IMG/VR virus record: IMGVR_UViG_3300046542_000259
Direction: 5' to 3' (one strand)
Length of the DNA stretch: 37,252 nt
DNA from: a virus
Lineage: Duplodnaviria > Heunggongvirae > Uroviricota > Caudoviricetes
The notes beneath the pieces are model-generated. The model was given only the letters and a program-made list of their open reading frames with translations, was not told the DNA's origin and ran no database searches. Each line of letters opens with the position of its first letter. The first letter of the stretch is position 1. This document shows, piece by piece, positions 17,702 to 34,234 of this stretch. The position numbers were made by a program, and so were the translations under genes.

Positions 17702-17836
17702 TTGACTTAATTACTAGAATCACCTAGAATTATCTTAATCCAGAGGGATGGGAACGGCGAACCTGCCCGCTTTTTAAAACGGAACAAAACGTGAACAAAT
17801 TTGACGTAAAAAATCCCGCTTTTTGAGCGGGATTTT
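17702..17836 (+). promoter_or_regulatory. LexA-box cassette 1 (one-sided)
   Basis: TTGACT-17-TAGAAT; motif GGGATGGGAACGGCGAACCTGCC 17745-17767; GAAC-N7-GAAC 17782-17796; bidirectional hairpin 17810-17836. Confidence 0.85.
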
Positions 17837-17853
17837 AAAAGATTTAATTTTTG

Positions 17854-18240
17854 TTACATTCCGCTTTCGATTTTGTCGGAAAGAGGCTTAATAACTTCGT
17901 TCCAAATCGTTTCCGTTGTTTCAGTTATGGTGTAGTCCGAAACAACGTCATAACCATCGTTTCCGTAGATCAGCATGAAACGTCCAAGGTTTTCGCCAGC
18001 TTTGTTCCGAAGCTGCAAAATATCTTCATCCGTGGAAAACAGTGCGTCCATAACAACGCGGTATTTGTTGGACTTTTTAACAGTCCATTCCTCACCGTCG
18101 CAAACGCTAACGAGCATTTCATTCCTAAGAGCGTACTTGACAATTGCGCTGCAAATCCGGCGCTCAGCATCGATCCGCTTTGCAAGGCTGTTTTCACCGC
18201 GTGCCTTAGCTTCTTTGATGGCGCGATTGAAATCGTTCAT
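17854..18240 (-). CDS. Hypothetical early protein
   Basis: AAGGA RBS, own promoter, downstream terminator. Confidence 0.8.
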   Translation of the reverse strand: MNDFNRAIKEAKARGENSLAKRIDAERRICSAIVKYALRNEMLVSVCDGEEWTVKKSNKYRVVMDALFSTDEDILQLRNKAGENLGRFMLIYGNDGYDVVSDYTITETTETIWNEVIKPLSDKIESGM

Positions 18241-18322
18241 GGCTTAGTTCCTTGTTTGCGTTTCAACAATTCAAATTTAGAAGAAAAAGGGATTTGGTCA
18301 ATCCCTTTTTCTTACATTTGTT

Positions 18323-18526
18323 TCAAATATCTTCCACCGTTTCGGAAGGCAGGAGACGCGAAAGATTGAAGCGTTCTTCCTGCAAACGAGAAAGCTTTGC
18401 GCAACGACGGTCGAAACCAGCTTCATCACCACGTTCCAGAGCCTTGAATTTGCCTTCCTGCGTTGCGTAGAAATCAACGTCGATTGCTTCAATTTCAGCT
18501 TTGATCTGAGCGATTGTGCGGGCCAT
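18323..18526 (-). CDS. Hypothetical early protein
   Basis: AAGGA RBS and TTGACA promoter. Confidence 0.75.
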   Translation of the reverse strand: MARTIAQIKAEIEAIDVDFYATQEGKFKALERGDEAGFDRRCAKLSRLQEERFNLSRLLPSETVEDI

Positions 18527-18678
18527 TTTCGTTTTCCTTAGTTCGTTGCTGCGTTGTCTGTGCCTCTTATTCTATGGATTTTTGAGATTCTGTCAATCCC
18601 TTAAATGTAAGAAATTGGCATTATTTCAATCTTTTTATTGTTCAATGATTGTGAACGGTTTTTGAATCATTGTAACCA

Positions 18679-18870
18679 GAACAATAAGAGAACAAATCGC
18701 GTGGCGAACTTTTCCGATACACCATACCGCAATGTAAGAAAACGTCTCAGTGAGGCTGTATGAGGCTTTTAAAGCGTGAACAAATTAAGGCACATTTGTT
18801 CCCTATTTGTTCACGATATGAGCCGTTTTAAATTGCATCGTCGGTTCATGCTCCCATCCTACTGGATTAA
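18679..18870. promoter_or_regulatory. Degenerate LexA-box cassette
   Basis: GAAC-N7-GAAC 18679-18693; GTTC-N7-GTTC 18798-18812; degenerate reverse motif TTAATCCAGTAGGATGGGAGCATGAACC. Confidence 0.65.
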
Positions 18871-18929
18871 AATGACTTTAAATGAAAAAACCGGCTTTGT
18901 AAAGCCGGTTTCTTAGTTATTTTGATTTT

Positions 18930-19127
18930 TTAATAAAAATATTCGACGTTGGGAGTAGGATTTTCTTTAAGAAAAGCTTTCATATCTTCCTTAGTTTCAA
19001 AGCCTTCAATCCATTGAGTTTCGTTATCGTAGAAAGCAACTAGAACAAAAGGGCGATTTGTATGCTCATCTGTCACGCCGAATTCAGCTTCAATCGCTTC
19101 AGAAGAGCCAGCAACAAAACGTTCCAT
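18930..19127 (-). CDS. Hypothetical acidic early protein
   Basis: AGGGA RBS, promoter, downstream terminator at about 18888-18911. Confidence 0.75.
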   Translation of the reverse strand: MERFVAGSSEAIEAEFGVTDEHTNRPFVLVAFYDNETQWIEGFETKEDMKAFLKENPTPNVEYFY

Positions 19128-19217
19128 TTTTGTATTCCCTGTTTCAACTGACTCTTTTATAAAATGAAAAAGCCTCTATTGCAAGAGGCTTTTTCAATTA
19201 TTTTGATTTTAAAGTTT

Positions 19218-19520
19218 TTACCAATTTCCGTTCATTTTTTCCATTTCTTCCCATTCGTAAACTTGACCATCGGGACCATAATAACCGTACCGCTCATCTT
19301 CCGTCATAGTGGTACGTTCCCACAAATCGGGATTAAATTCACCTTTGGCCCAAATTTTATTAAACAAAGGCAATGCGGCTTCATATGTCGGAAATAGAGC
19401 GCGATTATCGGTCAGAACGTACTCTTTACCATTAGCCTTGACATGCACTGCGAAAAAAGGGCCATGGCCCGGATTAGCAATGTCTGAAATCCAAAGGTGA
19501 TTCCGATTAACGATTTTCAT
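19218..19520 (-). CDS. Hypothetical early protein
   Basis: Start after recurrent leader AAGGGAATACGGAAATG. Confidence 0.8.
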   Translation of the reverse strand: MKIVNRNHLWISDIANPGHGPFFAVHVKANGKEYVLTDNRALFPTYEAALPLFNKIWAKGEFNPDLWERTTMTEDERYGYYGPDGQVYEWEEMEKMNGNW

Positions 19521-19534
19521 TTCCGTATTCCCTT

Positions 19535-19580
19535 GTTTCAACTGTCACCAAACATATTCTTACATTTGGTGACAGTCAAG
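19535..19580 (-). promoter_or_regulatory. Inverted-repeat-embedded early promoter cassette
   Basis: TTGACT-17-TATGTT inside the ACTGTCACCAAA/TTTGGTGACAGT repeat; near-identical copy at 19864-19909, related copy at 26314-26350. Confidence 0.8.
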
Positions 19581-19588
19581 AGCTAATT

Positions 19589-19813
19589 TCAGCCCGCAGC
19601 GCTATATACAAATTCGTGAGGATGGCCACCATAAACCCTGACATGGTAAATGTGTTTGTGCTTAAGTGCGACATCTTCGCTCAAAGAAAGCTTGGAACGA
19701 ATGAAGCTCTTAGCCGCGTCCAAGCCGCCATAGATGAATTGTGTTTTCATTCCGCCGCCCCATGTTTCGGGCAAATGGATTTCCACGATGTGAGACGGTA
19801 AAGATTTAAGCAT
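19589..19813 (-). CDS. Hypothetical early protein
   Basis: Start after recurrent leader AAAGGGATTTGCAAAATG. Confidence 0.75.
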   Translation of the reverse strand: MLKSLPSHIVEIHLPETWGGGMKTQFIYGGLDAAKSFIRSKLSLSEDVALKHKHIYHVRVYGGHPHEFVYSAAG

Positions 19814-19943
19814 TTTGCAAATCCCTTTGTTTGCTGGCTTATTTCGCTTTAGCGAAAGTTGCCGTTTCAACTGTCACCAAACATATTCTTACATGTGGTG
19901 ACAGTCAAGTGTTTCCTCTCAATTAATTGAGAGGAACAACGCT

Positions 19944-20354
19944 TTAAAGCGAGCCCCAATAAACAGTGCTAGGGTGGCCATCTTCATAAGCCTCTAGGGC
20001 GCGATCAGCGCTGGCATAACGATCCTCGTTATCATGGGCGCTCGGTGCATCGATCCACATCGATTCAGGACCATCAAGCCATTGGTTATGATCGTCTTCA
20101 TCCTTAAGCCATGCAATAATTGATACCGGAACCGGAACGATGTGAACCGAAGAATATTGCGTGCTGTCGCAATCCATACCGGAGCGGCAAATGGCGACTA
20201 GGCCATTCTCAGCCATGGCGGTAAACCTAGCGCGTGCGTTGCCGCGTTCCATGATCCGGCTGTGAATAGCGGGGACTCGCAAATTGCGGTCCTGACCCAT
20301 CTTGACAATTTTCTTCAGATTGCGCTTGATTTTCTCAGAAAGCATTTTCGTCAT
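19944..20354 (-). CDS. Hypothetical early protein
   Basis: GGAG RBS, own promoter. Confidence 0.8.
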   Translation of the reverse strand: MTKMLSEKIKRNLKKIVKMGQDRNLRVPAIHSRIMERGNARARFTAMAENGLVAICRSGMDCDSTQYSSVHIVPVPVSIIAWLKDEDDHNQWLDGPESMWIDAPSAHDNEDRYASADRALEAYEDGHPSTVYWGSL

Positions 20355-20435
20355 CTCCGTTTAACTGTCACCAACTTAAAACAACAAAATATCTAAGTCA
20401 ATCCGTTTTCTTACATCATTGTTTTAATTTAGTTG

Positions 20436-20600
20436 TTGCCAAGTACCGCAGGATCGAGTAATCTTTAATTACAGCAGGGGTTGGGGAGAATGAGGGATGG
20501 GCTTTGTTGGAACAAAACGTGAACAAAAGAATCAGGCAGGTTCGCCGTTCCCATCCCAAGGATTAAGAAAAAGACTAGAGGATTTTCATCCTCTAGTCAA
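20436..20600. promoter_or_regulatory. LexA-box cassette 2 (convergent promoters)
   Basis: + TTGCCA-17-TAATCT; box 20510-20524; reverse motif 20535-20557; - TTGACT-17-TAGTCT embedded in hairpin 20572-20600. Confidence 0.85.
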
Positions 20601-20608
20601 CTGTTATT

Positions 20609-20827
20609 TTAGCCATGCTTTCCAACTAAATCCATGCGGCCTGTACCTACAGCTAGATTGTTGTACATCTGGCGAAACTGGCGGCGATACTGCGAGTCAT
20701 TTTCCATACTATCTTGATGCATGATTTCGCGGGCTTCAAGCCAAACAGCGCGTTCCTCAGCAGTGAAATTCATGGTGCCGGTCTTACGAGCAGCAGTGTT
20801 GATGGCGCGGGCTTCGGAAACGTTCAT
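20609..20827 (-). CDS. Hypothetical early protein
   Basis: AAGGA RBS, own promoter. Confidence 0.75.
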   Translation of the reverse strand: MNVSEARAINTAARKTGTMNFTAEERAVWLEAREIMHQDSMENDSQYRRQFRQMYNNLAVGTGRMDLVGKHG

Positions 20828-21000
20828 TTGCTTAATTCCTTGTTTCGATGATTAATAGTCTCATATAATCGAAACGTTGGCAAGCCCTAAATGTAAGAAA
20901 ATGAAACTAATTAAGCCACGTCATAAAAGCCTCATAGAAGGCGATACAGAGCGTTTCGACGTTTTGGCTAGGGCAATGTGTCCAATGCCCTAAAGCCTAT

Positions 21001-21081
21001 TCACAATGGAAATATGATCCAGAGCAAGACGATGGAAGAGACGAAACCGGCAAATGCGATCAAATCAGGATTTCCATTCAT
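21001..21081 (-). CDS. Single-TM micropeptide MNGNPDLIAFAGFVSSIVLLWIIFPL
   Basis: C-terminal LLWIIFPL shared with 33652..33714 using synonymous codons. Confidence 0.6.
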   Translation of the reverse strand: MNGNPDLIAFAGFVSSIVLLWIIFPL

Positions 21082-21538
21082 CGCCACCGGCAAACTTAAG
21101 ACACATCAACAACGCCCCAAATTCGCTTGGATGGCCATAGGTTTGACCATTCGGCAAGGTATATTGCCATTTGTCAGTCCCATTGATGCTAGGGCCTTCA
21201 TATAGCGGAAAGATGGTAAAAGTTTGGCCATTGATAGTTATGGTGCGACGTGAGCCTTTAACTTCAGTATTGACTTTGATTTCCGTGTCAACTGTAGTGA
21301 CAGGCTTAACAAATAGGTCTTTGCCATAAATATTTGTATTCTTATCAAGCTCAGCAATGAAAACATAACCGAGCGATTCCATTTGATGGTCCATACCATT
21401 AAACTCATAACTCTTGGAAACGGTTTTGCTTTTACCGCGATTCTCACCTTCCAAGTAAGTTATCTTGAAGCGGGAAGGCTTATAGCTTGTTGGGCCTAGA
21501 TACTTAACCTTAATCACGGAACGGAACATGCTCAGCAT
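21065..21538 (-). CDS. Hypothetical early protein
   Basis: 157-aa ORF; IKVKYLGPT..SR.K N-terminal motif. Confidence 0.8.
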   Translation of the reverse strand: MLSMFRSVIKVKYLGPTSYKPSRFKITYLEGENRGKSKTVSKSYEFNGMDHQMESLGYVFIAELDKNTNIYGKDLFVKPVTTVDTEIKVNTEVKGSRRTITINGQTFTIFPLYEGPSINGTDKWQYTLPNGQTYGHPSEFGALLMCLKFAGGDEWKS

Positions 21539-21556
21539 TGTTTAACCTTTCTGGGG

Positions 21557-21757
21557 TTAGTTGTAGTTTTGCGTCAGATTTGTAGCACAAAAGTTTTGGA
21601 CATGAGACGCGTTAGTAACTTGCTCATAAGTCAAATCAATTGCTTTCTGAATTGCAATGTAAATGCTTTCCGCCTCAATCGTGAACGTTGCGCGGCGATA
21701 GAATTCACCTTGTTCGTCTGTGTGGCGATACTTGGTAATTACGTGAAACTTATCCAC
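21557..21757 (-). CDS. Hypothetical early protein
   Basis: GTG start 8 nt after AAGGAG. Confidence 0.65.
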   Translation of the reverse strand: MDKFHVITKYRHTDEQGEFYRRATFTIEAESIYIAIQKAIDLTYEQVTNASHVQNFCATNLTQNYN

Positions 21758-21759
21758 GA

Positions 21760-22011
21760 TCAAAGCTCCTTTACATGTTCGGCATAGTATTGGCGCAGCA
21801 TTTCGCCGCAAGCCGCGATTTCTTCAGGCGAAAACACAATCTTGCCTTTGCTGATTTCTCGCTCAAAGCGCGGCACAACATTTAGTTTGACATGAGCAAA
21901 CCACGCCTTCCAATCTGCATTAGCTTGCGCTAATTCAACGTGGCGGTTATACAATTCGCCGGTAGTAACGGCAAAATCGAAAACATCTTGAGCCGTGAAT
22001 TTCTCAGACAT
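21760..22011 (-). CDS. Hypothetical early protein
   Basis: AAGGA RBS. Confidence 0.8.
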   Translation of the reverse strand: MSEKFTAQDVFDFAVTTGELYNRHVELAQANADWKAWFAHVKLNVVPRFEREISKGKIVFSPEEIAACGEMLRQYYAEHVKEL

Positions 22012-22073
22012 GCGCTTTTTCCTTTGTTAAGCGTTTAAGAATAGCGCTGCGTTCCAGCGCCAAATTTAAAGGC

Positions 22074-22265
22074 TTAGTAAAGTTTGGCTTTTGCAAGCAT
22101 ATAAAGCCCTGTTTCGGAACCTGTATAATCAGGCTCAGAGCTTTCACTATCCCAGCGCCATCCAAGAGTAGTACCGTTTTCATCACGATAAACATCATAA
22201 CTACCAGCATCACCGCAAATCATTCCCTGAAACTTGCCGCGATAGTTTTTCTTAATCTGTACCAT
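22074..22265 (-). CDS. Hypothetical early protein
   Basis: AAGGGAATACGGAAATG leader; inverted-repeat-embedded promoter. Confidence 0.75.
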   Translation of the reverse strand: MVQIKKNYRGKFQGMICGDAGSYDVYRDENGTTLGWRWDSESSEPDYTGSETGLYMLAKAKLY

Positions 22266-22343
22266 TTCCGTATTCCCTTTGTTGACCATGTAAGAAACTT
22301 AATCCCTTTTCCTTACATGGTCAAGCGCAAAACAAAAGAAAAA

Positions 22344-22475
22344 TCAAAAATATCGCGGCTTTCCTTCCATGCCTTCACGCTTCTCAGCCGCGACATAAGA
22401 GAAGATATTCCGCATCGCATCTTTGCTCTTGCGATCATTGCGGCGAGTAAGTTTGTGCATCTTATCACGAGCCAT
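22344..22475 (-). CDS. Hypothetical basic protein, 43 aa
   Basis: MARDKMHKLTRRNDRKSK...; AAGGA RBS. Confidence 0.6.
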   Translation of the reverse strand: MARDKMHKLTRRNDRKSKDAMRNIFSYVAAEKREGMEGKPRYF

Positions 22476-22523
22476 TTTAGATAATCCTTTCATATGGCTG
22501 TTAATCAGGTTCAAGCGTTAGAA

Positions 22524-22910
22524 TTATTCCACAATTTCAGCATTAAGGCATTGGTGAAAACATTCCCCAATGTAGTCTTTAATTTCGCGTTTGTCTCTGC
22601 CCGTCACTCTCAGAGTGAAGCCATACACAAGAGACGGAGTCACAATCACTTTGTGCTCTGTCCAGCCATCATAATAACCACCATCGTTCATGTGGTGAAA
22701 GCCGGTATCAAAAACGAGACGTTCCGGCTTGCTTTCATCAAAATTAAGCTTTGTGCCAGAGTCAAAGCCGGAACCGTGGGGAAACGTTTCAGACACAATC
22801 GATTTGATCGAGTCTTGATGCTTATCAAACCATTCCGTATTACCTTTTTCGAGGCAATTATTCATGGCTTGGAGCTTGTTAGCAATAATCTCAAAAACCT
22901 TACGAGTCAT
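22524..22910 (-). CDS. Conserved-type phage early protein (PHGSGFDSG..FHHMN..GYYDGW)
   Basis: Motifs recalled from phage hypotheticals; AAGGA RBS. Confidence 0.8.
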   Translation of the reverse strand: MTRKVFEIIANKLQAMNNCLEKGNTEWFDKHQDSIKSIVSETFPHGSGFDSGTKLNFDESKPERLVFDTGFHHMNDGGYYDGWTEHKVIVTPSLVYGFTLRVTGRDKREIKDYIGECFHQCLNAEIVE

Positions 22911-22975
22911 TTCCGTTTTCCTTTGTTTTCCTTACAATCTCAATCTAAAGCATTGTAAGATTATGTCAAGCGTCT

Positions 22976-23203
22976 TTATTCGACTCTTGGAATTAATTTT
23001 CCCGACAATTCACGACTAACGCAAGTCGCGGCGTAGCGGTAAACCGCGCCTTCACTGTCATGATAGACTATGGGATTTGTCTTATCGGTTCGGATTTGTT
23101 CAACGATATGATAGCAAGCCGTTTCCGATACCGTCTCAAACCGATTCATGTTCATGCCATGATTCGGTTCATTGATTAGGAAAATGAGAATAAGTTTTTC
23201 CAT
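22976..23203 (-). CDS. Hypothetical protein
   Basis: AAGGA RBS; hydrophobic N-terminus, two Cys. Confidence 0.7.
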   Translation of the reverse strand: MEKLILIFLINEPNHGMNMNRFETVSETACYHIVEQIRTDKTNPIVYHDSEGAVYRYAATCVSRELSGKLIPRVE

Positions 23204-23215
23204 TACGTCAATCCT

Positions 23216-23533
23216 TCATTTATACTTCACTGAAACTCTGTGCCAATCTGCCTTAACCGAAACAACTTTCTTTCCAGCCGGAACAAACGTGGTATTGCCG
23301 ACGTGCTTAAACTTACCATTGCTAAGCCGACGAACCACGTTGAACGGTTCAAATCCTGTAACCATGTTCCACGCGGTAAAGAAAGCCGCCTCAGCCGCGA
23401 CAGTATCATTTATCAAATCTTCCGACGTGACATGCAACATCTTGCCATTGTGGCGCAAGACATAGCAGCCATTGATTTCGACACAATCAATTTGCGTTCC
23501 CATTTTGGTTCGGGAAAAAGTAAACTTTGCCAT
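23216..23533 (-). CDS. Hypothetical early protein
   Basis: GAGGA RBS, own promoter. Confidence 0.75.
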   Translation of the reverse strand: MAKFTFSRTKMGTQIDCVEINGCYVLRHNGKMLHVTSEDLINDTVAAEAAFFTAWNMVTGFEPFNVVRRLSNGKFKHVGNTTFVPAGKKVVSVKADWHRVSVKYK

Positions 23534-23633
23534 TTCCGCAGTCCTCTTGTTTGATGATTTATAATCTCACACTTTGAATCATTATTCAAGTCTTTTTCTT
23601 ACATTTAATTTCATTATTTTCTGAAAATAGTTG

Positions 23634-23821
23634 TTGACATAGGAGGCGGAATCATCTAATATCATTACATACCAAGGAAGCAGCGCTGGAGAGCGGAGTG
23701 AGGTAGGGAGAATGAGGGATGGGTTCCGTTAGAACAAAACGTGAACAAAAATTTGTTCCAGCCTCGGCGTTCCCATCCGAAGGATTAAAAAGAGACTAGC
23801 GGCTTTTCAGCCGCTAGTCAA
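23634..23821. promoter_or_regulatory. LexA-box cassette 3 (convergent promoters)
   Basis: + TTGACA-17-TAATAT; box 23732-23746; - TTGACT-17-TAGTCT in hairpin 23793-23821. Confidence 0.85.
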
Positions 23822-23830
23822 TTATTATTT

Positions 23831-24010
23831 TTAAATTTCGTAACTTCTTTCCCCGTCTCTTTCGACGCAGATTTCAACGTGCAAGGATTCTAGTTCATCC
23901 TTTTCGTAATAGCTTTCCATCCATTTAACCGCTTCGGTGTAATTCTTGAATTCCCGAATGTCGCACTCTTTTTCATAACCGGCATTTTCAACCACGATGT
24001 ACTTTTTCAT
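23831..24010 (-). CDS. Hypothetical early protein, 59 aa
   Basis: MKKYIVVENAGYEKECDIREF...; AAGGGGG RBS. Confidence 0.7.
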   Translation of the reverse strand: MKKYIVVENAGYEKECDIREFKNYTEAVKWMESYYEKDELESLHVEICVERDGERSYEI

Positions 24011-24104
24011 TTCCGTAACCCCCTTCGTTCGATAATGTAATTTCTCACATTATCGAAACTATTGCAAGCGTTTTCTTACATCTTTTTAAAAATACTTTCA
24101 CGGC

Positions 24105-24356
24105 CTAAGCCGTGACTCTCTGTTTCATCGCGGCAACCACGTCGGCATAATTGGCACGGTGCACCATAAGCGATTGAGACAATGCCTTGACATTCTCATG
24201 ACGCTTAGGCGCGGCCAAACGCTTAGCCAATGCCATACCAGCATTTTCGAGATGGCGCTTATGGTCCATCAAATCGGAATATGAGAAATGCGCGAATTTG
24301 GTGACGGCGCGATTGAAAGTCTTTTCCGAATTGATGAAAGCTGAAACTTTTGCCAT
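24105..24356 (-). CDS. Hypothetical early protein
   Basis: AAGGGAATACGGACATG leader. Confidence 0.75.
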   Translation of the reverse strand: MAKVSAFINSEKTFNRAVTKFAHFSYSDLMDHKRHLENAGMALAKRLAAPKRHENVKALSQSLMVHRANYADVVAAMKQRVTA

Positions 24357-24421
24357 GTCCGTATTCCCTTCGTTTCGATAATTAAATATCGCACAAAGAT
24401 CGCGGCATGACAAGCGTTTTC

Positions 24422-26938: not shown

Positions 26939-27034
26939 GTTTATGGTTTGTTCCGTTTTTGGCGCGGCGCACCCTAGCCGTTCCCACGGCCATTCCGTTA
27001 AAAACAAAATAGGGCGTTTCCGCCCTACTGTCAA
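26939..27034 (-). promoter_or_regulatory. Inverted half LexA-box cassette
   Basis: - TTGACA-17-TATTTT in hairpin; motif TGGGAACGGCTAGGGTG; degenerate box GAAC-N7-AAAC 14 bp downstream. Confidence 0.7.
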
Positions 27035-27502: not shown

Positions 27503-27566
27503 TGCTTTGTTCCTGCTATCTAGCGTTTCGATATAAACAAGATAACAGGAACATGTTAAAGAAAGA

Positions 27567-27917
27567 TTAACGTGCCAGAGTATAAATCACATAACCTTTG
27601 TTTTTCAATTCTTCCATATCGTCGGTTATGCAATAATCGTTATAGTACCAAAAATTGCCGATGACTTCGCGGTTTCCATCGTCATCCGTATCCAGAGACT
27701 CAGCGATGCACGGCGCACTAGTGAGACCGACAAAGGGATTCCCGTCGCCACCATCAAACGGCTCGTATGAGCCATTAGAAGAATATGGCTCGAATATATC
27801 CGCCATCATAGTCCAATAGTTGCGATCCAACGCGAACCATTCCGCAAGCTCTTTTCTGCCTTCATTTGAGGCTGTGAGCTTCAAATCACCGTTCGGAAGA
27901 ATTGTGACGTTAAACAT
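27567..27917 (-). CDS. Hypothetical early protein
   Basis: GAGGA RBS before MFNVT. Confidence 0.8.
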   Translation of the reverse strand: MFNVTILPNGDLKLTASNEGRKELAEWFALDRNYWTMMADIFEPYSSNGSYEPFDGGDGNPFVGLTSAPCIAESLDTDDDGNREVIGNFWYYNDYCITDDMEELKNKGYVIYTLAR

Positions 27918-28032
27918 TGTTAACTTTCCTCTCAATAGTCCTAATAGCGTTGTTTGTTCCTGCAACGCTGTGAAGCGTAAACGTGCAAAGGAATAATGAA
28001 GCCAAAGCGACGATGTGAATAACTTTCGACAT
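27910..28032 (-). CDS. Hypothetical membrane/secreted peptide, 40 aa
   Basis: MSKVIHIVALASLFLCTF...; GGGAG RBS. Confidence 0.55.
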   Translation of the reverse strand: MSKVIHIVALASLFLCTFTLHSVAGTNNAIRTIERKVNNV

Positions 28033-28083
28033 TGGTTTAACTCCCTTTCTGTTTTCTTACATTAAGGGAGTTAAATCATTAAG

Positions 28084-28266
28084 TCAAGAGTCCTTTTCAA
28101 CCAACGTTACAGATTGAACGTAATTGTGCTGGCAAACCCATTTCATAAAATCTTCCGGTTCATGCCATGCGCCGGGAACCATATCGAGCATTAGCTCGAT
28201 TTCGATTTTGACCTTTTTCGCAAACTTGCTTTCGTAGCGGTTCGGGTTTTCAATTGTCTTAGACAT
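28084..28266 (-). CDS. Hypothetical early protein
   Basis: AAGGA RBS; leader nearly identical to that of 21760..22011. Confidence 0.75.
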   Translation of the reverse strand: MSKTIENPNRYESKFAKKVKIEIELMLDMVPGAWHEPEDFMKWVCQHNYVQSVTLVEKDS

Positions 28267-28381
28267 GACGCTTTTTCCTTTTGTTAAGCGTTTAATTGAT
28301 CTAATGACAAACTACGTTTTATTACATGTCATGTCAAGCGATTTTTTATAAAAAGAAAGTTATTTTATTTCGGGAAAGCGC

Positions 28382-28580
28382 TTGACATAGTGATTAGAAA
28401 CGCTTAGTATTTAGTTACAGCAGGGGTTGGGGAACGGCGAGGCTGGGCGCTATTTATTTCGGAACAAAACGTGAACAAAAGAATCAGGCAGGTTAGCCGT
28501 TCGCATCCTCACCACGATTAGAGCCATCGCTGTTTCATTGGATTGAAATAAGAATAGCGCCATTCGCGGCGCTATGTCAA
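28382..28580. promoter_or_regulatory. LexA-box cassette 4 (convergent promoters)
   Basis: + TTGACA-17-TAGTAT; box 28462-28476; reverse motif 28487-28508; - TTGACA-18-TATTCT in hairpin. Confidence 0.85.
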
Positions 28581-28589
28581 TCATTATTT

Positions 28590-28781
28590 TTAAAAATCTG
28601 CGATACACTGACTTTCAAAAGGTGAGCCGATTGAGGCGAAATTTGTTGCGCCATTATCGAACGTGACAAAGATTTTTCCTTTGTCAATATCTATTTTGTC
28701 AACCGTGAAACATACCGTTGCGCCATCATTCCAAGTGTAACGATAACGCTTGCCAATTGAGACGTGAGTCTTGTGTTTCAT
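28590..28781 (-). CDS. Hypothetical early protein
   Basis: GGGA RBS before MKHKTH. Confidence 0.7.
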   Translation of the reverse strand: MKHKTHVSIGKRYRYTWNDGATVCFTVDKIDIDKGKIFVTFDNGATNFASIGSPFESQCIADF

Positions 28782-28800
28782 CTCAGTTATTCCCGTCTTA

Positions 28801-29043
28801 TTAGATTGCGCCATAAACCCATTTGTTAATCGCGGGTGGAATTTCGAAAACATTTTTCGGATCATGCTTATAGTAAACATATTCCGAATTATGCAGATTG
28901 ACCGCGTTCATTGCGTCGGCTTGCCAGTCATACCGAGTCGCTTCTTGAAGCGCAAAGGTATAGGTCATTTCGCCGTCATCGTTCATGCCAGTAGCGTAAG
29001 CATTGTGTTGAGCGAGTTTCATATAAACGATGTATTTTGCCAT
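28801..29043 (-). CDS. Hypothetical early protein
   Basis: AAGGA RBS before MAKYIV. Confidence 0.75.
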   Translation of the reverse strand: MAKYIVYMKLAQHNAYATGMNDDGEMTYTFALQEATRYDWQADAMNAVNLHNSEYVYYKHDPKNVFEIPPAINKWVYGAI

Positions 29044-29112
29044 GACTGCGATTTCCTTGTTTCGATGACTCACAATACAATTTCTTACATTGTGAGTCAA
29101 GGATTATTTCAG

Positions 29113-29289
29113 CTATTTAAACACTTTATACTCAAACAATCCATAAATTTCTATTCCGCATTTCGCGGCGAAGCGAGTCGCTCTTTCCTGATTGGCGCAA
29201 CGCCTTGCCTCTTTCCACGTTCCCCACGTGCCATCGCTTTTGAGATACAAATCTTCAAGCAACGAATTTTTTCTGATTCTTACTGTCAT
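29113..29289 (-). CDS. Hypothetical early protein, 58 aa
   Basis: MTVRIRKNSLLEDLYLKSDGTWGTW...; GAGGG RBS. Confidence 0.65.
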   Translation of the reverse strand: MTVRIRKNSLLEDLYLKSDGTWGTWKEARRCANQERATRFAAKCGIEIYGLFEYKVFK

Positions 29290-29290
29290 G

Positions 29291-29488
29291 TCAAACCCTC
29301 TCTATCAATTCATAGCGCCAGCGGGCCACATCCATAACGTTCCAGAGCGCAACACGTGCCATGGCATGAGCCTTGCTTAACGCGGTTTGCCTATCGACCG
29401 TAGCAAATTCGTCATCGCATACCTTGACGCGACGGAACCAAAACAGATATGTGCCACGGCTATGGAGTTCGTTATACGGGATTTCCAT
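29291..29488 (-). CDS. Hypothetical early protein
   Basis: Packed between neighbours; start MEIPYN. Confidence 0.65.
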   Translation of the reverse strand: MEIPYNELHSRGTYLFWFRRVKVCDDEFATVDRQTALSKAHAMARVALWNVMDVARWRYELIERV

Positions 29489-29492
29489 TGTC

Positions 29493-30089
29493 TCAGCCTT
29501 CCCGATTGCCGTTAATATCGAACGTGTATTCGTTGCAGCGAATATTCTCGTCCACTGATTCGTCGCTGTTTTGATCATTGTAATAGTTTTCGAGTTCCCT
29601 GTAAATCCATTTCATGAACCGGCGCAATGTTGCAGCCATTTCGTCATGAGTCTCAGCCGGAACATAATCGCCAGTGAAGCTATTGAAAACGTCAATATCG
29701 GTGCAATATTCGTGCGAATAATGCCCGCTATGCTTTACCTTTGCTTCAAGGCGATAGAAGTTTTTACGCTGCAATTCCTGCAATTCGTTGGCGATATTTT
29801 CTAGCGTTTCCATTCCGCCAGTATATGCAGAAATAGCATCACGTGCTTTCTTTGCATAACTGTAACGGCCTTCGAAGCACGCCCCATCACCTTGGGAAGA
29901 GAAGCCGCTAAAGTAAATGTTATCAATCTGAATCCCTAGCAGCTTGCCGCATTCCGTAACATCCTCAAAGGTTGAATCCCACCATTCATCTTGAGCGCTG
30001 TCGGTACGGAACCAATCGCGGGCCTTTTCTTTAGCCGTGTCGCTCAGTTCGTCATACTTGTAAACCGTTGTTTCAATGATTTCTGGCAT
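29493..30089 (-). CDS. Member of the plasmid/ICE/phage family commonly labelled 'antitoxin of toxin-antitoxin stability system'
   Basis: MPEIIETTVY..DELSD.AKEKAR.W, FSGFSSQGDGACFEG and NEYTF motifs; family recalled from memory. Confidence 0.75.
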   Translation of the reverse strand: MPEIIETTVYKYDELSDTAKEKARDWFRTDSAQDEWWDSTFEDVTECGKLLGIQIDNIYFSGFSSQGDGACFEGRYSYAKKARDAISAYTGGMETLENIANELQELQRKNFYRLEAKVKHSGHYSHEYCTDIDVFNSFTGDYVPAETHDEMAATLRRFMKWIYRELENYYNDQNSDESVDENIRCNEYTFDINGNREG

Positions 30090-30184
30090 GGTCTGAATCC
30101 TTTGTTCATTTGATTTAACCTAATCTACATGTAAGAAAACGATTTGGCAAGTGATTTTATTTTTAAAAAATGTAATTTTGTCAG

Positions 30185-30416
30185 TTGACATAGGAAGTAG
30201 AATCGCCTATTCTAAACTTAATCCAAGGATGGAACGTCGAGAGGACGAGGCCGGAGGATGGGAACGGCGAACCTGCCCGCTTCAAAAATCAGAACAAAAC
30301 GTGAACAAAAATTTATTCCAACCCTCGTTCTCCCTGCCTATGGCGATTCGAAATCGCTAATCAATGACATAATTATAATTTAAACGATTATCCCGGCCTA
30401 GTCAATAGGCCGGGAT
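30185..30416. promoter_or_regulatory. LexA-box cassette 5 (convergent promoters)
   Basis: + TTGACA-17-TATTCT; motif 30256-30277; box 30292-30306; - TTGACT-17-TAAATT with -35 in hairpin loop. Confidence 0.85.
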
Positions 30417-30429
30417 ATTATATTTTCAG

Positions 30430-30645
30430 TTATTCCACCTTTTTAATCAGACCATTTTCCATCGTGACTTTACCGAAAAATTCCCTTCCCGGCAATCCAG
30501 TGACGGCGGGACGGTGAGCCACAACGAAAGAACCATTGGCGCGGTATTCCTCGCCAAACATGGAAGTTTCGCGATACTTCAGCGCCTTGCCGATATTTTC
30601 CTTCAATTCCTTTTTCGACCGATAGCCTGTTACCAAAAGCGTCAT
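30430..30645 (-). CDS. Conserved-type small phage protein
   Basis: Y.SKKELKENIG..L.Y.ETSMFG.EY motif; AAGGA RBS. Confidence 0.8.
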   Translation of the reverse strand: MTLLVTGYRSKKELKENIGKALKYRETSMFGEEYRANGSFVVAHRPAVTGLPGREFFGKVTMENGLIKKVE

Positions 30646-30683
30646 AACCGTTGTTCCTTTGCTTTGTTGATATAACCGTTTTA

Positions 30684-30950
30684 TTACAATTTAAAAACGG
30701 AGACAACTAATTTTTCAAGTTTTCTGATTTCAGCTGAGCGAGTGAAACTTTCGCCACGACATAGTGTGAAGCCTTTATAACCGCGTTTTCTACACTCAGC
30801 TAGTGCTATGTCACGATGTGTCGCCATGTTCTGGCGACCGTCAAGAATGACAACGGAACGGTCGCCACAAGCCGGTATGAGCTTGACAGGGCCGGAAAAG
30901 TCTATTCCGTTCCATCCCGTCGAATCGTGGTAGAATTGGGCGTAAATCAT
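30684..30950 (-). CDS. Hypothetical early protein
   Basis: ATGA overlap with upstream gene; GDRSVVILDGR motif. Confidence 0.8.
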   Translation of the reverse strand: MIYAQFYHDSTGWNGIDFSGPVKLIPACGDRSVVILDGRQNMATHRDIALAECRKRGYKGFTLCRGESFTRSAEIRKLEKLVVSVFKL

Positions 30951-31204
30951 TTCGATTCCTTCCTTGCCAAGCCTATCAGAACGACTCGAACCTCTTTCGC
31001 CATCGCCGTTTCGTCATCGCGCCGGTTGGCGCAAGCCTTCCTGTATAGCTCTGTAGCACTACAGCCAGTTGTTTTCATATGAGCCTTGACCGCTTCCACC
31101 GCTTCATTGTGAAGCGCGGCGCTAGCGGCATGAATAGCCGCCATCTTTGCCTTATTCGGCTTGAGCGTTTTAACCGCGCCGCGATATAGTTTATCAGCGT
31201 TCAT
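30947..31204 (-). CDS. Hypothetical early protein
   Basis: GAGGA RBS before MNADKL. Confidence 0.75.
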   Translation of the reverse strand: MNADKLYRGAVKTLKPNKAKMAAIHAASAALHNEAVEAVKAHMKTTGCSATELYRKACANRRDDETAMAKEVRVVLIGLARKESK

Positions 31205-31258
31205 TGCTCTATTCCTCTTGTTTCGATACATACGTATTATTACATTGAAGAAATCATG

Positions 31259-31498
31259 TCAAGCGTTAATCGTAATAACTTCCGGTTCACGTTCCTTGAC
31301 TTGGTATTCTTTAACTACTGAATTCAAGCCGCTTCCAACTTCGAACAAAACGAAATTGTAATATCCAGCCCTAGAGAGTGAAATAACACGAGTCTCGCAT
31401 TGTTCTACAGCCCATTCCTCTTTATCGTTTTGAATCGCATGATCGATACGCGGCAAAAGGGCGGAACCTGTAGCAGATAGAATATAGCCAATTTTCAT
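31259..31498 (-). CDS. Hypothetical early protein
   Basis: AAGGAG RBS; own promoter. Confidence 0.75.
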   Translation of the reverse strand: MKIGYILSATGSALLPRIDHAIQNDKEEWAVEQCETRVISLSRAGYYNFVLFEVGSGLNSVVKEYQVKEREPEVITINA

Positions 31499-31589
31499 TT
31501 CAACGACTCCTTGTTTCTATAATCACAATCTAAGTCATTTTCTTACAATGGTCAAGCCTATTAATTTAAATAATTTTGGAAAATAGTTG

Positions 31590-31816
31590 TTGACTTAGGA
31601 CGTAGAATCGCCTATTCTAATCTTAATCCAACGATCCAGCGCCGAGAGGGCGTCGGGAAGGATGGGAACGGCGAACCTGCCCGTTTTTTAAAATGGAACA
31701 AAACGTGAACAGAAATTTGTTCCAGCCCCGCCGTTCCCACGCTATTCTTTTTGAAAAAAGTTTCAGAAAGAATGTTCCGTTAAAACAAGACTAGAGGATT
31801 TTCATCCTCTAGTCAA
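31590..31816. promoter_or_regulatory. LexA-box cassette 6 (convergent promoters)
   Basis: + TTGACT-17-TATTCT; motif 31660-31681; box 31696-31710; - promoter/hairpin 31788-31816 identical to cassette 2. Confidence 0.85.
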
Positions 31817-31824
31817 TAACTATT

Positions 31825-32049
31825 TTAAAATTTAATCGATTCGCCAACATGGCCCGAATTTTGCATCTCATTCAAACGATTGTCTAAAACGCTCCATTCC
31901 TGATAATCTTCCGGTTCCATATCATCTAGGCCGCAATCCTCATATTTGGCCCGCAACGTGTCCCGCTTTTCCATCGTCTCTTGATATTCGAGACTGCAAC
32001 GCGTTACACCTTTGCCATTTGGCCAGTCAATAAAGCCGTTATGTTCCAT
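31825..32049 (-). CDS. Hypothetical early protein
   Basis: GGAG RBS; own promoter. Confidence 0.75.
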   Translation of the reverse strand: MEHNGFIDWPNGKGVTRCSLEYQETMEKRDTLRAKYEDCGLDDMEPEDYQEWSVLDNRLNEMQNSGHVGESIKF

Positions 32050-32127
32050 CGCTTCAATCTCCGTTTCAATAATTAAAGATTAAAACATTGCGCCGTCCTA
32101 GTCAATAGAGCGGCGCAATTTATTTTA

Positions 32128-32736
32128 TTAATCTTCAGTTTCCTCCTTTTCAGGCAAGCGATACCACGCTGTAAAGTGTACATCAAATTGTCCGACACTA
32201 TCGATTGAGAAAACAAATTCTTCGCAATCTGGAAACTTTTCTTGAATAAGTTTCTTTACTGATTCAGGTGTATCGGTTTGACCATGATGGAACCCGGATT
32301 CGGCCTGATAATCAAACTTGACAAAGCCGAATTGAGCAAAATCAATTTCCCACGAATCCGCCACGTTATGATCACATGAAAGCAAATCTTCAAGGTAACG
32401 TTCGGGATTTGCTTCGGCCTCCCGACGACTCCACACTTCACAGTTAAGAATGTTAAACGTAGGAGTCCGGCCATAATATGACGGTTGTGTTTCGTGAACC
32501 AAACCTTCACTATCGCTAATGGTTTCATCATAGAAGCGCAATTGCATTCCCTTACATTCCATCAATTCGCTCAAACGTCTCTGATTTTTGGTTTCCAGCG
32601 TCTCACCTTCAGGAGCGGGCCACAAGCGCCACAAATCGCCGGTCCAAACGTGTTCGCCAGATTCATAATGAGTGCCCTCATACGTCAATTTGTTGTTTTC
32701 TTCAAAGATGGAAAGCAGGCGATTCAGTGTGAACAT
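32128..32736 (-). CDS. Hypothetical acidic early protein
   Basis: 202 aa; AGGAG RBS; ESGFHHGQTD.P..GQFD motif. Confidence 0.85.
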   Translation of the reverse strand: MFTLNRLLSIFEENNKLTYEGTHYESGEHVWTGDLWRLWPAPEGETLETKNQRRLSELMECKGMQLRFYDETISDSEGLVHETQPSYYGRTPTFNILNCEVWSRREAEANPERYLEDLLSCDHNVADSWEIDFAQFGFVKFDYQAESGFHHGQTDTPESVKKLIQEKFPDCEEFVFSIDSVGQFDVHFTAWYRLPEKEETED

Positions 32737-32797
32737 GTTCGCGACTCCTGTTAGCGCGTTTCTATACTACCGTTTTATTACATTTTGAAGAATAATG

Positions 32798-33034
32798 TCA
32801 AGCGACAATTTCACCGAATTTCTGGCAATCTTGTGTCAATGCAAGCAACGCGGGTCCGTCAAAGTCCTGCGAGTCAAGAATATTGCCTTGACTATCTTTG
32901 ACTTCAAAGTCAATCAAATCACCATTGCTCGCAAATTCGCAAGAGATGGATTCCATGTCATCCGGTAAACCATGGCAAGGCCATGATTTCTTAAAATCAT
33001 AGATGAAATCCTCATCTAAGGTTTTCCATACCAT
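32798..33034 (-). CDS. Hypothetical acidic early protein
   Basis: AAGGA RBS. Confidence 0.75.
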   Translation of the reverse strand: MVWKTLDEDFIYDFKKSWPCHGLPDDMESISCEFASNGDLIDFEVKDSQGNILDSQDFDGPALLALTQDCQKFGEIVA

Positions 33035-33076
33035 TACAATGATTCCTTATCAATGTGTTTCGTTACATACGTTTTA

Positions 33077-33331
33077 TTACATTTCCGATTCACGGTCAAG
33101 ATAAAAATTGAAACTTTTCCAGCAAACCGCGCTTTCTTTTTTGGTGTCGCGTGTTTCGGCGTAATAGTCGGCGCAACCATTAGGAATATAACCGTCGCTT
33201 TCTGCAATGGTTACACCAACGGCAATGGCCCATTTCTTGACGTGGAATTCAGGATCAATCGACTCGTTAGGTGCGAGTCGGCGCAATAGCTCATGTTCGC
33301 CGGTTCGATTGTTTAGGATTGCGATATACAT
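33077..33331 (-). CDS. Hypothetical early protein
   Basis: GAGGA RBS; TTGACA-17-TATAGC promoter. Confidence 0.75.
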   Translation of the reverse strand: MYIAILNNRTGEHELLRRLAPNESIDPEFHVKKWAIAVGVTIAESDGYIPNGCADYYAETRDTKKESAVCWKSFNFYLDRESEM

Positions 33332-33435
33332 TGCTAAAGTCCTCTTGTTTCGTTGCAGCTATAATGAGTGAAGCTTGACTCACTGTCAAGTAAGAAAACG
33401 GCAAAAATTAAAATAATTATTTTGGGGAATAATGA

Positions 33436-33643
33436 TTGACTTAGTGATTAGAATCAACTATTCTAAAGTTAATCCAACGGGATGGGAACGGCGAACCTGC
33501 CAACTTTTTATTTTGGAACGAATCGTGAACAGAAATATGGCGCAGATTCTCCGTTCGCCACCTAGACCGCTATCGCAACGCTCATCTTTGATGTAGTTTT
33601 AGTTTAGACCTTTGCCACTACCCCGTCAAGAGGTAGTGGCAAA
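33436..33643. promoter_or_regulatory. LexA-box cassette 7 (convergent promoters)
   Basis: + TTGACT-17-TATTCT; motif 33479-33501; box 33516-33530; - TTGACG-17-TAAACT with -35 in hairpin loop. Confidence 0.85.
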
Positions 33644-33651
33644 TTATTTTA

Positions 33652-33714
33652 TTAAAGCGGAAAAATAATCCAGAGTAGAATTATTAGTGTAACAAACACT
33701 AATAATCTAATCAC
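33652..33714 (-). CDS. Single-TM micropeptide MIRLLVFVTLIILLWIIFPL
   Basis: GTG abuts the upstream stop; LLWIIFPL shared with 21001..21081. Confidence 0.55.
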   Translation of the reverse strand: MIRLLVFVTLIILLWIIFPL

Positions 33715-33963
33715 TTAAACGTCGCCCCATTTCAGGTCAAAGACATTAGGAAAATACTCGGTTCCCATGGAGTCATCGTTCCACTTGACCCAAACTCGGT
33801 TATGGCCGTTATTGGGCCATCCTGTCACGGTCGCAAGTTCGCCGCGACCCGATGTGACCTTATCGCCAACTTTAACCGGCGTTCCGTCGCTGTGGAACAA
33901 TGGACGAACCGGCGAAACCTTTTTGATCTCTCCAAAACCTCTAAGCTTAATTGTCTTTGCCAT
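33715..33963 (-). CDS. Hypothetical early protein (SH3/KOW-like barrel possible)
   Basis: AAGGAG RBS; VKVGDKV..G..ATV..VWVKW pattern. Confidence 0.75.
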   Translation of the reverse strand: MAKTIKLRGFGEIKKVSPVRPLFHSDGTPVKVGDKVTSGRGELATVTGWPNNGHNRVWVKWNDDSMGTEYFPNVFDLKWGDV

Positions 33964-34059
33964 TTACTGAGTCGCTCCTTTGTTTTGACTATTTGTATCC
34001 TAATGTAAGAAAATGATTTAGTCAAACGATTTTTTATAAAAAGAATTTTAAAATAGCTA

Positions 34060-34234
34060 TTGACACGACTCAATCATTTTCGTATAATTGAGGCACAGCA
34101 GCGGTTGGGGAACGGCGAACCTGCGCCATTTTTAAAACGGAACAAAACGTGAACAAAGACGGTACGAACGAATCAGGAACAGTGGAACAAAACGTGAACA
34201 AATTAAGGCAAGATTTTGTTCACGTTTTGTTCCA
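34060..34234 (+). promoter_or_regulatory. LexA-box cassette 8 with a cluster of five boxes
   Basis: TTGACA-17-TATAAT; motif 34103-34124; boxes at 34140, 34151 (GAAC-N7-GTAC), 34166, 34185, 34218 (reverse); 20-bp perfect inverted repeat 34183-34234. Confidence 0.9.

Follow-up and report, generated by a model that had tools for sequence, protein, structure and literature searches.

The stretch analysed here (the window, 37,252 nucleotides of a Caudoviricetes virus, IMG/VR record IMGVR_UViG_3300046542_000259) comes from a large soil phage, an alphaproteobacterial siphovirus of phiCbK/DSS3P8-like type, and likely represents its long terminal repeat. A permuted tmRNA gene of alphaproteobacterial type (1376..1738, minus strand), separate from the element described below, gives a clue to the host. 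A 16-bp tandem array (17532..17687, plus strand) marks the left edge of the zone in which contig depth steps up, and the boundary of the repeat likely lies between ~17.6 and ~19.5 kb, where depth rises. From 17688 to 37252 the minus strand carries small early genes with sigma70 promoters; this part is the likely long terminal repeat and continues beyond the window end. All ten sites at which the original prediction had placed a repeated cassette were found, and they resolve into 16 half-units, more than it had reported. These half-units, which we call heads, are divided equally between the strands (8 each) and form six convergent pairs and four lone heads (17702 and 34060 on the plus strand, 18903 and 27034 on the minus strand). 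Every head sits at an operon boundary, and heads are confined to the region of raised contig depth, with none in at least the outermost 2.8 kb of the repeat. In Logan contigs one cassette is joined to another, which may reflect other strains or assembly effects.

Each head consists, in order, of a sigma70 promoter, an A at +1, a 4-bp 5' stem (P1), the motif G(G/C)GA-N10-YG and an alphaproteobacterial LexA box. The first lone head (17702..17796, plus strand; -35 at 17702, predicted +1 at 17737, P1 at 17738-17749, motif at 17750-17766 with Y15 at 17764, box at 17782-17796) faces a bidirectional terminator at ~17807-17838. The second (18679..18903, minus strand) has its -35 at 18903 within a terminator hairpin, a degenerate motif from 18855, and points at a cluster of boxes (degenerate 18809-18823, 18798-18812, and 18679-18693). 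The third (26939..27034, minus strand) again has its -35 (27034) in a terminator hairpin, and its motif at 26985 lies 32 nt from an inverted degenerate box (26939-26953). Two convergent pairs have 39 nt between their Y15 positions: 20436..20600 (plus motif 20484, 26 nt from the box at 20510-20524; minus motif 20552, 28 nt; minus -35 at 20600 in a terminator hairpin) and 23634..23821 (long plus head with a K-turn-like insert, motif 23706, 26 nt; box 23732-23746; minus motif 23774, 28 nt). In the other four this distance is 45 nt: 28382..28580 (plus motif 28430, 32 nt; box 28462-28476; long minus head, motif 28504, 28 nt), 30185..30405 (both heads long, motifs 30260 and 30334, box 30292-30306), 31590..31816 (both long, motifs 31664 and 31738, box 31696-31710) and 33436..33629 (plus motif 33484, box 33516-33530, long minus head with motif 33558). 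The last lone head, the 'master' head (34060..34232, plus strand, motif 34108), points at an array of boxes (34140, 34166 and 34185, a degenerate one at 34151 and an inverted one at 34218-34232), past which lies an A/T tract with short iteron-like repeats (34233..34385). This whole arrangement is kept in the relatives G001, G002 and G006.

The original prediction took a G-rich tract to be the conserved feature, but what is conserved is a folded RNA with covariation. P1 begins at +2 in every case, lies at offset 7 from the -10 (one at 8) and is fully paired in 15 of the 16 window heads, the exception being the minus head of the 31590..31816 pair (3 of 4 pairs). When 3' arms were swapped among the window heads, a mean of 5.3 and a maximum of 12 were paired (20,000 shuffles), and six of the seven distinct arm types pair, against 1.6 on shuffling (p = 0.0008). 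P1 cells of an 8-row alignment were 100% paired, which none of 500 shuffles matched. With relatives included, pairing is complete in 29 of the 31 heads tabulated, a table that omits one row (L393:2250), likely a false match, and whose counts are not independent samples, as the relatives' heads come from kindred phages. The loop of P1 is either 3-5 nt or a K-turn-like insert. This insert, in a stem overlooked by the original prediction, is the cause of the real variation in promoter-to-motif distance that it had noted (21 versus 47-48 bp). A kink-turn has a C helix, a 3-nt bulge and then G.A and A.G pairs (PMC4316175); the long heads (n = 17) carry this sequence signature, with GA after the 3-nt bulge in 16, the opposing A in all 17, the opposing GA in 10 and the closing C-G in 16. 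A similar Firmicutes leader raised the idea of an AbiF-like type III antitoxin mimic, which we rejected, as that leader precedes HTH-like and peptidase-like ORFs (one locus, by eye).

Y15-G16 is present in 15 of the 16 window heads (of our two scan patterns for heads, the second required TG at this step and the first did not). The consensus of the elemental pause has Y at -1, G at +1 and G at -10; the same 15 of 16 count thus holds for its first two positions, while G-10 is not conserved, motif position 6 being mostly C. The -35 lies in or at a hairpin in all eight minus heads, most of which stand behind stable terminator hairpins, several with U tracts (by eye). The gene downstream of a cassette has its own promoter, and the predicted head transcript runs into the box. 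The original prediction saw no ORF served by the plus promoters; small plus-strand ORFs do overlap some cassettes, but their start codon is not conserved between copies (by eye).

Strict GAAC-N7-GAAC/GTTC-N7-GTTC words number 14 in 17,501-34,400, against 0.5 expected, with one in 1-17,500 and none in 34,401-37,252. GTTC-N7-GTTC is the alphaproteobacterial LexA operator (PMC8565304), as had been proposed for these boxes, and the identical 16-mer occurs in alphaproteobacterial promoters before imuA-like genes and before a small gene followed by dnaE. Among 26 such host loci read, 12 ORFs were scanned and gave two imuA-like, six dnaE behind the small gene and four unmatched, all matches being under curated cut-offs with ORFs cut by locus ends. 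The LexA DNA-binding domain PF01726 had no match in five virus records, one of them a complete relative; another phage protein could bind. Repression by promoter occlusion is rejected, in agreement with the original prediction: the boxes lie 39-72 nt downstream of the predicted +1, beyond the promoter, and overlap neither -35, -10 nor start site. R. sphaeroides LexA reportedly blocks promoter clearance at recA (Tapias, 2002).

The spacing is rigid. All 28 boxed heads tabulated from this phage and four relatives have the motif 32, 28 or 26 nt from the box; the distance is 32 nt in 18 heads and 26 nt in two on the GAAC side and 28 nt in all eight on the GTTC side, so that it tracks box orientation. 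GGAACGGCGA begins 31 bp before the box in six of six copies, as originally described, and the reverse motif does keep a fixed register after the box, though in all six pairs (28 nt) and not in five copies. The pyrimidine-G step falls 17 or 13 nt before the box, where a blocked polymerase is expected to stop, in keeping with the proposed positioned roadblock. The 45 nt between Y15 positions equals 30 plus the 15-bp box; in the 39-nt pairs Y15 is 11 nt from the box. Head-on E. coli polymerases seen by cryo-EM had active sites 26, 29 and 31 bp apart, and a nascent hairpin raised the collided complex's half-life from 6 to 150 min, as described in PMC13082048.

The search of related phages that had been suggested showed that this spacing is retained despite differing gene content. 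Homologous heads occur in the cultured marine roseophages RpAliso, DSS3P8, MD18 and MAL1, with zero or one box, so LexA, which the original prediction had put at the centre, is not the core of the system; the core is the RNA head. Roseophage-type convergent pairs have Y15-to-Y15 distances of 29, 29, 29, 30 and, in DSS3P8, 24 nt with unrelated filler sequences, and four of the five fall in the cryo-EM range of 26-31 bp if Y15 is taken as the 3' end. Where a box lies within 60 nt of a roseophage-type head it is 17, 16, 14, 10 or 30 nt ahead, and at L438 it overlaps Y15 of the minus head in a 29-nt pair. Nine of 11 lone roseophage heads examined face the hairpin of an oncoming gene (-16 kcal/mol or stronger) 25-35 nt ahead, six of these nine hairpins having at most two U among the next 8 nt. 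Roseophage heads showed no covarying P1, and alifold gave them no 5' stem. Phages with heads have between 2 (G006) and 16 of them; the stretches read of seven cultured relatives (phiCbK, Colossus, Lacusarx, RcXuper, L02, XM05, RXM) yielded none.

Our preferred, still tentative reading of these sequences is that the unit joins a sigma70-type promoter to a predicted structured RNA that parks host RNA polymerase, forming barriers between units. The parking, judged from geometry, is probable; its purpose as a barrier is less so. Transcription would start at +1 of the head, and host polymerase would halt ~15 bp before an obstacle, near Y15-G16, the obstacle being presumably host LexA on its box in this phage and an oncoming polymerase in the relatives. 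P1 might restrict backtracking in the way that hairpins act in collided complexes, and its 5'-terminal position might shield the RNA from 5'-end-dependent decay (RppH, RNase J torpedo). SOS cleavage of LexA would release the parked polymerases, and those freed at plus heads would go on to transcribe the upstream early operon in antisense or enter the facing head. Parked complexes would be barriers, SOS-sensitive in this clade, between one early transcription unit of the terminal repeat and the next. Since most minus heads of the window already stand behind stable terminator hairpins, additional barriers there look redundant. Several further observations count against this reading: the 39-nt window pairs, the 24-nt pair of DSS3P8, the unkept G-10, the irregular box distances in roseophages and their lack of a covarying P1, the copy number of 2 to 16, and the cultured relatives without a head in the stretches read. 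Nothing favours R-loops, DNA entry or polymerase sequestration, as originally raised, over the barrier role.

The strongest competitor, although unlikely, is that heads encode small RNAs (~30-60 nt) that act in trans: a LexA or polymerase roadblock would set their 3' ends, after which they would be freed to bind a protein of host or phage, with LexA gating their length by SOS state. The constant start of P1, as for a 5'-protecting stem, the K-turn signature of long heads, the multicopy expansion and, in 15 roseophage heads, an internal loop that is purine-rich and near-invariant would fit. Against this, short heads have just a 4-bp stem of changeable sequence, loops and 7 of the 17 motif positions are free to vary, exact patterns found no promoter-bearing host chromosomal counterpart in GTDB genomes, and no Rfam family matched at gathering score. 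We give still less credence to parked transcripts forming RNA-DNA hybrids that prime the phage's family A polymerase, either in replication or when the long terminal repeat is copied at packaging. ColE1 RNA II, T4 R-loop origins and the T7 concatemer-junction pause are precedents of this type. The motif is 71% purine, convergent primers would be expected to give two forks, G006 encodes Pol A and primase, four phages conserve the box array, the A/T tract and the iteron-like repeats that the best-kept head faces, and a terminase gene adjoins the exact box in 18 of 68 IMG/VR loci scanned. However, 16 origins within 17 kb seem excessive, and RpAliso heads lie >2 kb from its repeat block; that the G006 GC skew turns at ~100 and ~170 kb, away from its heads at 45-50 kb, is a weak point, because skew follows gene strand.

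It is very doubtful that the boxes act as a sponge for LexA or as ordinary operators, with cassettes spread by recombination like PeSL repeats and RNA structure and spacing merely passive. Box arrays without heads are indeed common in alphaproteobacterial phages (~460 IMG/VR stretches; a head in one of 125 among those listed), minus promoters overlap terminators as in PeSLs, and cassettes are joined in contigs; but compensatory P1 changes and a length kept despite altered filler require selection on RNA and spacing, and heads persist without boxes. Equally improbable are polymerase-LexA clamps acting on incoming DNA, whether they ratchet or stop an entry driven by transcription or hinder AddAB or translocating restriction enzymes at free ends: the units keep to the raised-depth region, G006 has a 'DNA transfer protein' (PHROG 1745) and outward-facing heads strike both box arrays, but heads occur in both orientations, at least the outer 2.8 kb is headless and nothing ties heads to entry.

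Returning to parked polymerase, one might speculate, as a possibility short of an expectation, that large long-terminal-repeat phages carry dedicated parking RNAs that keep host polymerase on the phages' own DNA as a long-lived structural block, positioned by a borrowed host repressor or a second polymerase, and that the block or its primer-like RNA reads host stress without promoter repression. The borrowed repressors would be LexA here and that of a Fur-like site in RaK2, while G003 and G004 would use other palindromes. Collisions and roadblocks of polymerase are mostly viewed as accidents or as aids to terminators; here, a genetic element would be purpose-built to cause one, with cryo-EM spacing encoded in DNA, a host repressor as spacer and an additional SOS-sensing route free of promoter repression, and it would account for some of the non-coding DNA still unexplained in phiCbK-like long terminal repeats. 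It is testable at present, since RpAliso, DSS3P8, MAL1 and MD18 (and RaK2 for the analogue) are cultured on tractable hosts and carry units.

Our literature search found no paper on the head/LexA-box unit. The analogue in RaK2, of the Rak2-like jumbo phages, is likewise undescribed and consists of tail-to-tail small-RNA units in the early region, with convergent promoters, short structured RNAs and a Fur-like box between; no sequence resemblance was seen, and its hairpin-to-box distance is 21-22 nt. Two other phage elements, the put RNAs of HK022 and the concatemer-junction pause of T7, have a nascent RNA or a pause act on the polymerase that made it, put speeding read-through into an operon and T7 using a phage polymerase; neither is known to use a host repressor or convergent pairs, and heads point into an obstacle, not an operon. 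Collision-driven bidirectional terminators hold head-on polymerases 26-31 bp apart by nascent hairpins, but those described (Wang et al., bioRxiv 10.1101/2022.10.23.513370; PMC13082048) are one hairpin at two genes' shared 3' ends, whereas heads have their own promoters, involve no mRNA, carry a stem of their own at the 5' end, 15 nt from where the polymerase is predicted to stop, and would have a repressor between the polymerases. The PeSL cassettes of T4-like phages, as presented in PMC4122927, are likewise repeated intergenic units of early variable regions with a promoter inside a terminator hairpin, and both they and heads may be recombination points; PeSL promoters, however, drive the next gene, whereas heads would drive a non-coding structured RNA at an obstacle, half of them against genes. 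In the same supergroup, phiCbK-like terminal repeats have clusters of host-regulator (CtrA) sites in intergenic repeat DNA, which PMC9437464 treats as promoter regulators; here the presumed regulator is LexA, and its sites are downstream, roadblock-type and tied to an RNA. Finally, the phage boxes share their word, and a 16-mer, with host SOS-type promoters, but the host operators described in PMC8565304 overlap their promoters, whereas the phage boxes stand well past +1, serve no ORF and keep a fixed distance from an RNA motif.

All ten cassette sites named in the original prediction are real, and the window holds 16 half-units or heads, 8 per strand and with 6 convergent pairs, counted from the first G of a 17-nt motif, G(G/C)GA-N10-YG. 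Each has a near-consensus sigma70 promoter, in which the predicted start is an A, and the next 4 bases pair with the 4 bases directly ahead of the motif to form a 5' stem, P1. This stem is complete in 15 of the 16 heads, 14 of them with an offset of 7 from the -10 element and one with an offset of 8, and six distinct arm pairs occur. When the 3' arms were shuffled 20,000 times, complete stems averaged 5.3 and never exceeded 12; by distinct arm types, 6 of 7 paired against 1.6 under shuffling (p=0.0008), and when the arm was slid by 1-3 nt only 0-5 heads paired. An independent count on 8 aligned short heads found 100% pairing, attained by 0 of 500 shuffles, and strain variants, read by eye at contig joints, keep P1 and an inner hairpin despite other letters. 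The P1 loop is 3-5 nt long or has an insert of 16-34 nt, which is the cause, previously overlooked, of the two promoter-to-motif distances that had been correctly noted. The spacer word of the head promoters, GAATCGCC, is common to roseophage heads and replaces the TGTAAGAA type of the ordinary early promoters (window 18300-37200), which often lie inside the upstream terminator hairpin, as in the PeSL cassettes of T4-like phages.

The unit is kept in a JGI metagenome relative with different genes (L252-L254) and in the IMG/VR relatives G001, G002 and G006. Our tabulation had 32 rows, one left out as a likely false hit and two L254 halves lying outside it; P1 is complete in 29 of the 31 heads of the window and its relatives. 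The conserved spacing anticipated for related phages was borne out, with motif-to-box distances in 28 boxed heads of 32 (n=18), 26 (n=2), or 28 from the GTTC side (8/8), so that the distance tracks the orientation of the 15-bp box (GAAC-N7-GAAC or GTTC-N7-GTTC), inverted lone halves included. The LexA box is missing from three heads in a group further removed (G003, G007). In the 17 long heads, a GA follows a 3-nt bulge in 16, an opposing A is found in all 17, an opposing GA in 10 and a closing C-G in 16, a predicted kink-turn signature as outlined in PMC4316175. Together with the G.U pairs, this would mean that the element acts as RNA. In distant phages (L396 of G003, L398 of G004, L399 of G005, and L411-L412), the head is followed at ~29-34 nt by other repeated words: a GGTATGAC-N5-GTCAT palindrome, which ordinary early promoters also have upstream of them, an array of words resembling TTAACGTTAA, a CtrA-like TTAA-N7-TTAA and an 11-bp-spaced GGCAG repeat; L335/L410 have a second promoter instead.

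Heads homologous to these were found in L038, a fragment of marine origin, and in four roseophages in culture, RpAliso, DSS3P8, MD18 and MAL1. They use the window's promoter spacer word, and their 17-nt motif can be aligned and likewise ends in YG; each early region has three to four copies, and the stretches read contain 0-1 LexA words. The 5' part of these heads is longer, hardly varies and has no covarying P1. The core of the unit is RNA, and what remains of the roadblock idea in the original prediction is a modified version, in which RNA defines the stop and LexA would be one exchangeable obstacle. Two heads of Mwe-JY26 scored weakly and were left out of the counts. Stretches read from phiCbK, Colossus, Lacusarx, RcXuper, L02, XM05 and RXM had no head; no cassettes were present in the relatives first picked by protein (L246-L249), in XM05 or in Colossus; and exact patterns found no head with convincing context in GTDB genomes. 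Blastn of the cassettes against cultured phages gave nothing useful, motif-plus-box patterns had no match in IMG/VR, a K-turn-head pattern returned 12 stretches (one known head and 11 without a promoter), and counts of GRATGGGAACG in 9 whole cultured records were near those of the reversed control.

We took the RNA 3' end to be the pyrimidine at motif position 15 (Y15), which in 15 of the 16 window heads has a G after it. From there to the box is 17 nt on the GAAC side and 13 nt on the GTTC side, and in window pairs the two Y15s are 45 nt apart in four cases (30 plus the 15-bp box) and 39 in two. Five roseophage-type convergent pairs have 29, 29, 29, 30 and 24 nt between Y15s, with unrelated filler. 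In cryo-EM of head-on E. coli RNA polymerases, the active sites lay 26, 29 or 31 bp apart, every complex was backtracked, and a nascent hairpin raised the half-life of collided complexes from 6 to 150 min (PMC13082048). Nine of 11 lone roseophage heads face, at 25-35 nt, a strong hairpin belonging to the oncoming gene, and in 6 of these 9 there is little U tract, as collision-aided termination would need (bioRxiv 10.1101/2022.10.23.513370). Against the spacing argument stand the two 39-nt window pairs, the DSS3P8 pair at 24, boxes 10 and 30 nt away in two roseophage-type heads, an L438 box overlapping one head's Y15, the absence of G at -10, and the position of most window minus heads, which are already behind stable terminators.

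Judging from this geometry, it is rather likely that RNA polymerase would fire from the head promoter, make 28-60 nt, meet LexA or a facing polymerase, backtrack by a few bases, halt once P1 is at the exit channel, and then stay. As a 5'-terminal stem, P1 would further slow decay-driven removal. Our confidence in the mechanism as a whole is moderate.

Of the strict LexA-type words, 14 fall in 17.5-34.4 kb of the window (0.5 expected), a single one lies left of this stretch and none right of it; this sole strict box outside the repeat (1695-1709) directly follows a promoter at the 5' end of the tmRNA gene. GTTC-N7-GTTC is given as the alphaproteobacterial LexA motif in PMC8565304. The exact box 16-mer is overall about as frequent as chance in GTDB (~320 stretches against ~280 expected from a uniform-base estimate); 26 of the 80 matches listed were picked as alphaproteobacterial, and such copies commonly overlap promoters before imuA-like genes or before dnaE with a small gene in front of it. 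A LexA DNA-binding domain was looked for in 5 virus records, the complete G006 among them, and not found. The phage box lies 39-72 nt downstream of +1, which makes promoter occlusion unlikely, as had been predicted. The exact box is found in ~460 IMG/VR viral stretches, against ~320 in 596 Gb of genomes; in loci L001-L080 it often occurs in arrays and next to G-rich or C-rich runs, and of 68 loci scanned, with 128 of their 157 flanking ORFs covered, 18 have a terminase gene beside the box. From these sequences, LexA-box arrays where packaging starts may be a trait of their own, and a widespread one. What we take to be a dif-like site adjoins the box in L034, L102 and L123.

The window (44% GC), found in rhizosphere metagenomes, encodes tRNAs, an alphaproteobacterial permuted tmRNA and large genes, tail-fibre-like among them, followed by small minus-strand genes over ~20 kb, for which the best matches among cultured phages lie in the terminal repeats of CcrColossus-like phages. 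G006, a complete 185-kb relative with many early ORFs in common, is a siphovirus that encodes a family A polymerase, a primase and an integrase, and its terminase is nearest to those of Mwe-JY26, Lacusarx, RcXuper, DSS3P8 and phiCbK-like phages (32-39% identity); its 'DNA transfer protein' of PHROG 1745 and tyrosine integrase lie at L405:17310-18896 and L406:17894-18469. In the three runs covering nearly the whole stretch, contig depth is 16.8, 11.7-12.1 and 33.4 left of 17.6 kb, and 25-28, 19-22 and 58-62, respectively, right of 19.5 kb, with intermediate values in between; it is still high beyond 36 kb in the single run reaching that far. This step is consistent with a long terminal repeat, contig depth not being copy number and the runs possibly being one campaign. 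The idea that cassettes fill the entire repeat was abandoned, high depth continuing past 36 kb. A 16-bp tandem array (17532-17687), none of which was seen in L254, breaks all assemblies and has length variants. The box array is followed by an A/T tract, a CGCGCCAG word and short iteron-like repeats (window 34233-34385; L393, L395, L402, L038, L483), a block that in this clade and the roseophage fragments is possibly an origin or terminase site.

As to purpose, the heads might well be barriers between early units, a tentative reading favoured because every head stands at an operon boundary, in either orientation, and because box-free relatives aim theirs at weak terminators. SOS cleavage of LexA would then loosen the barriers and let plus heads run antisense into early operons. 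It is unlikely that the heads are instead released small RNAs, and somewhat less likely still that they prime replication or terminal-repeat copying: the best-kept head fires at the box array and iteron-like block, and terminase genes lie beside boxes in those 18 of 68 other phage loci, but GC skew does not place an origin at the heads. A role as passive sponge or PeSL is very improbable, and one in DNA entry or end protection equally so.

By eye, we rejected a conserved peptide, a sigma54 or ECF promoter, boxA, an AbiF antitoxin mimic, a G-quadruplex (one copy only) and a CsrA sponge (GCGA variants); likenesses to SRP and 5S RNAs, without Rfam support, were also set aside. In phage RaK2 (L488, NC_019526; 13995-14215), convergent promoters and short structured RNAs flank boxes that we take to be Fur-like and that lie 21-22 nt past a small hairpin; such boxes also stand opposite another head, at 14859, and five more copies face none. 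This is an analogue without visible homology, a lead rather than independent support. A conserved, Rfam-negative structured leader of low-GC prophage-like contigs (L301, L304, L310, L327, L337-L339, L352, L358, L366, L373), which in the one locus read precedes an HTH-like gene, has the GGGAACG-N7-UG text of the heads, seemingly in a hairpin loop, and is probably a separate RNA family.

The unit is real, selected and conserved from soil to marine phages, and, as far as these tools reach, undescribed: Rfam has no match, we found no description of the layout in the literature (coverage of subscription journals being limited), and a search of three of the six listed supplements of PMC10690425, among whose unnamed candidate phage RNAs its RNA could be, gave no hit. 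Nothing of use came from PMC13584721, PMC9638019 or 10.1101/2019.12.26.888743, and none of the terms sought occurs in PMC7643831. With PeSLs (PMC4122927) it has in common the promoter-in-terminator design, and with the CtrA phages (PMC9437464) the theme of host regulator sites in terminal repeats, but it lacks a defining feature of each. It likewise lacks one of hairpin-stabilised collision, to which its likeness lies in how the unit would work.
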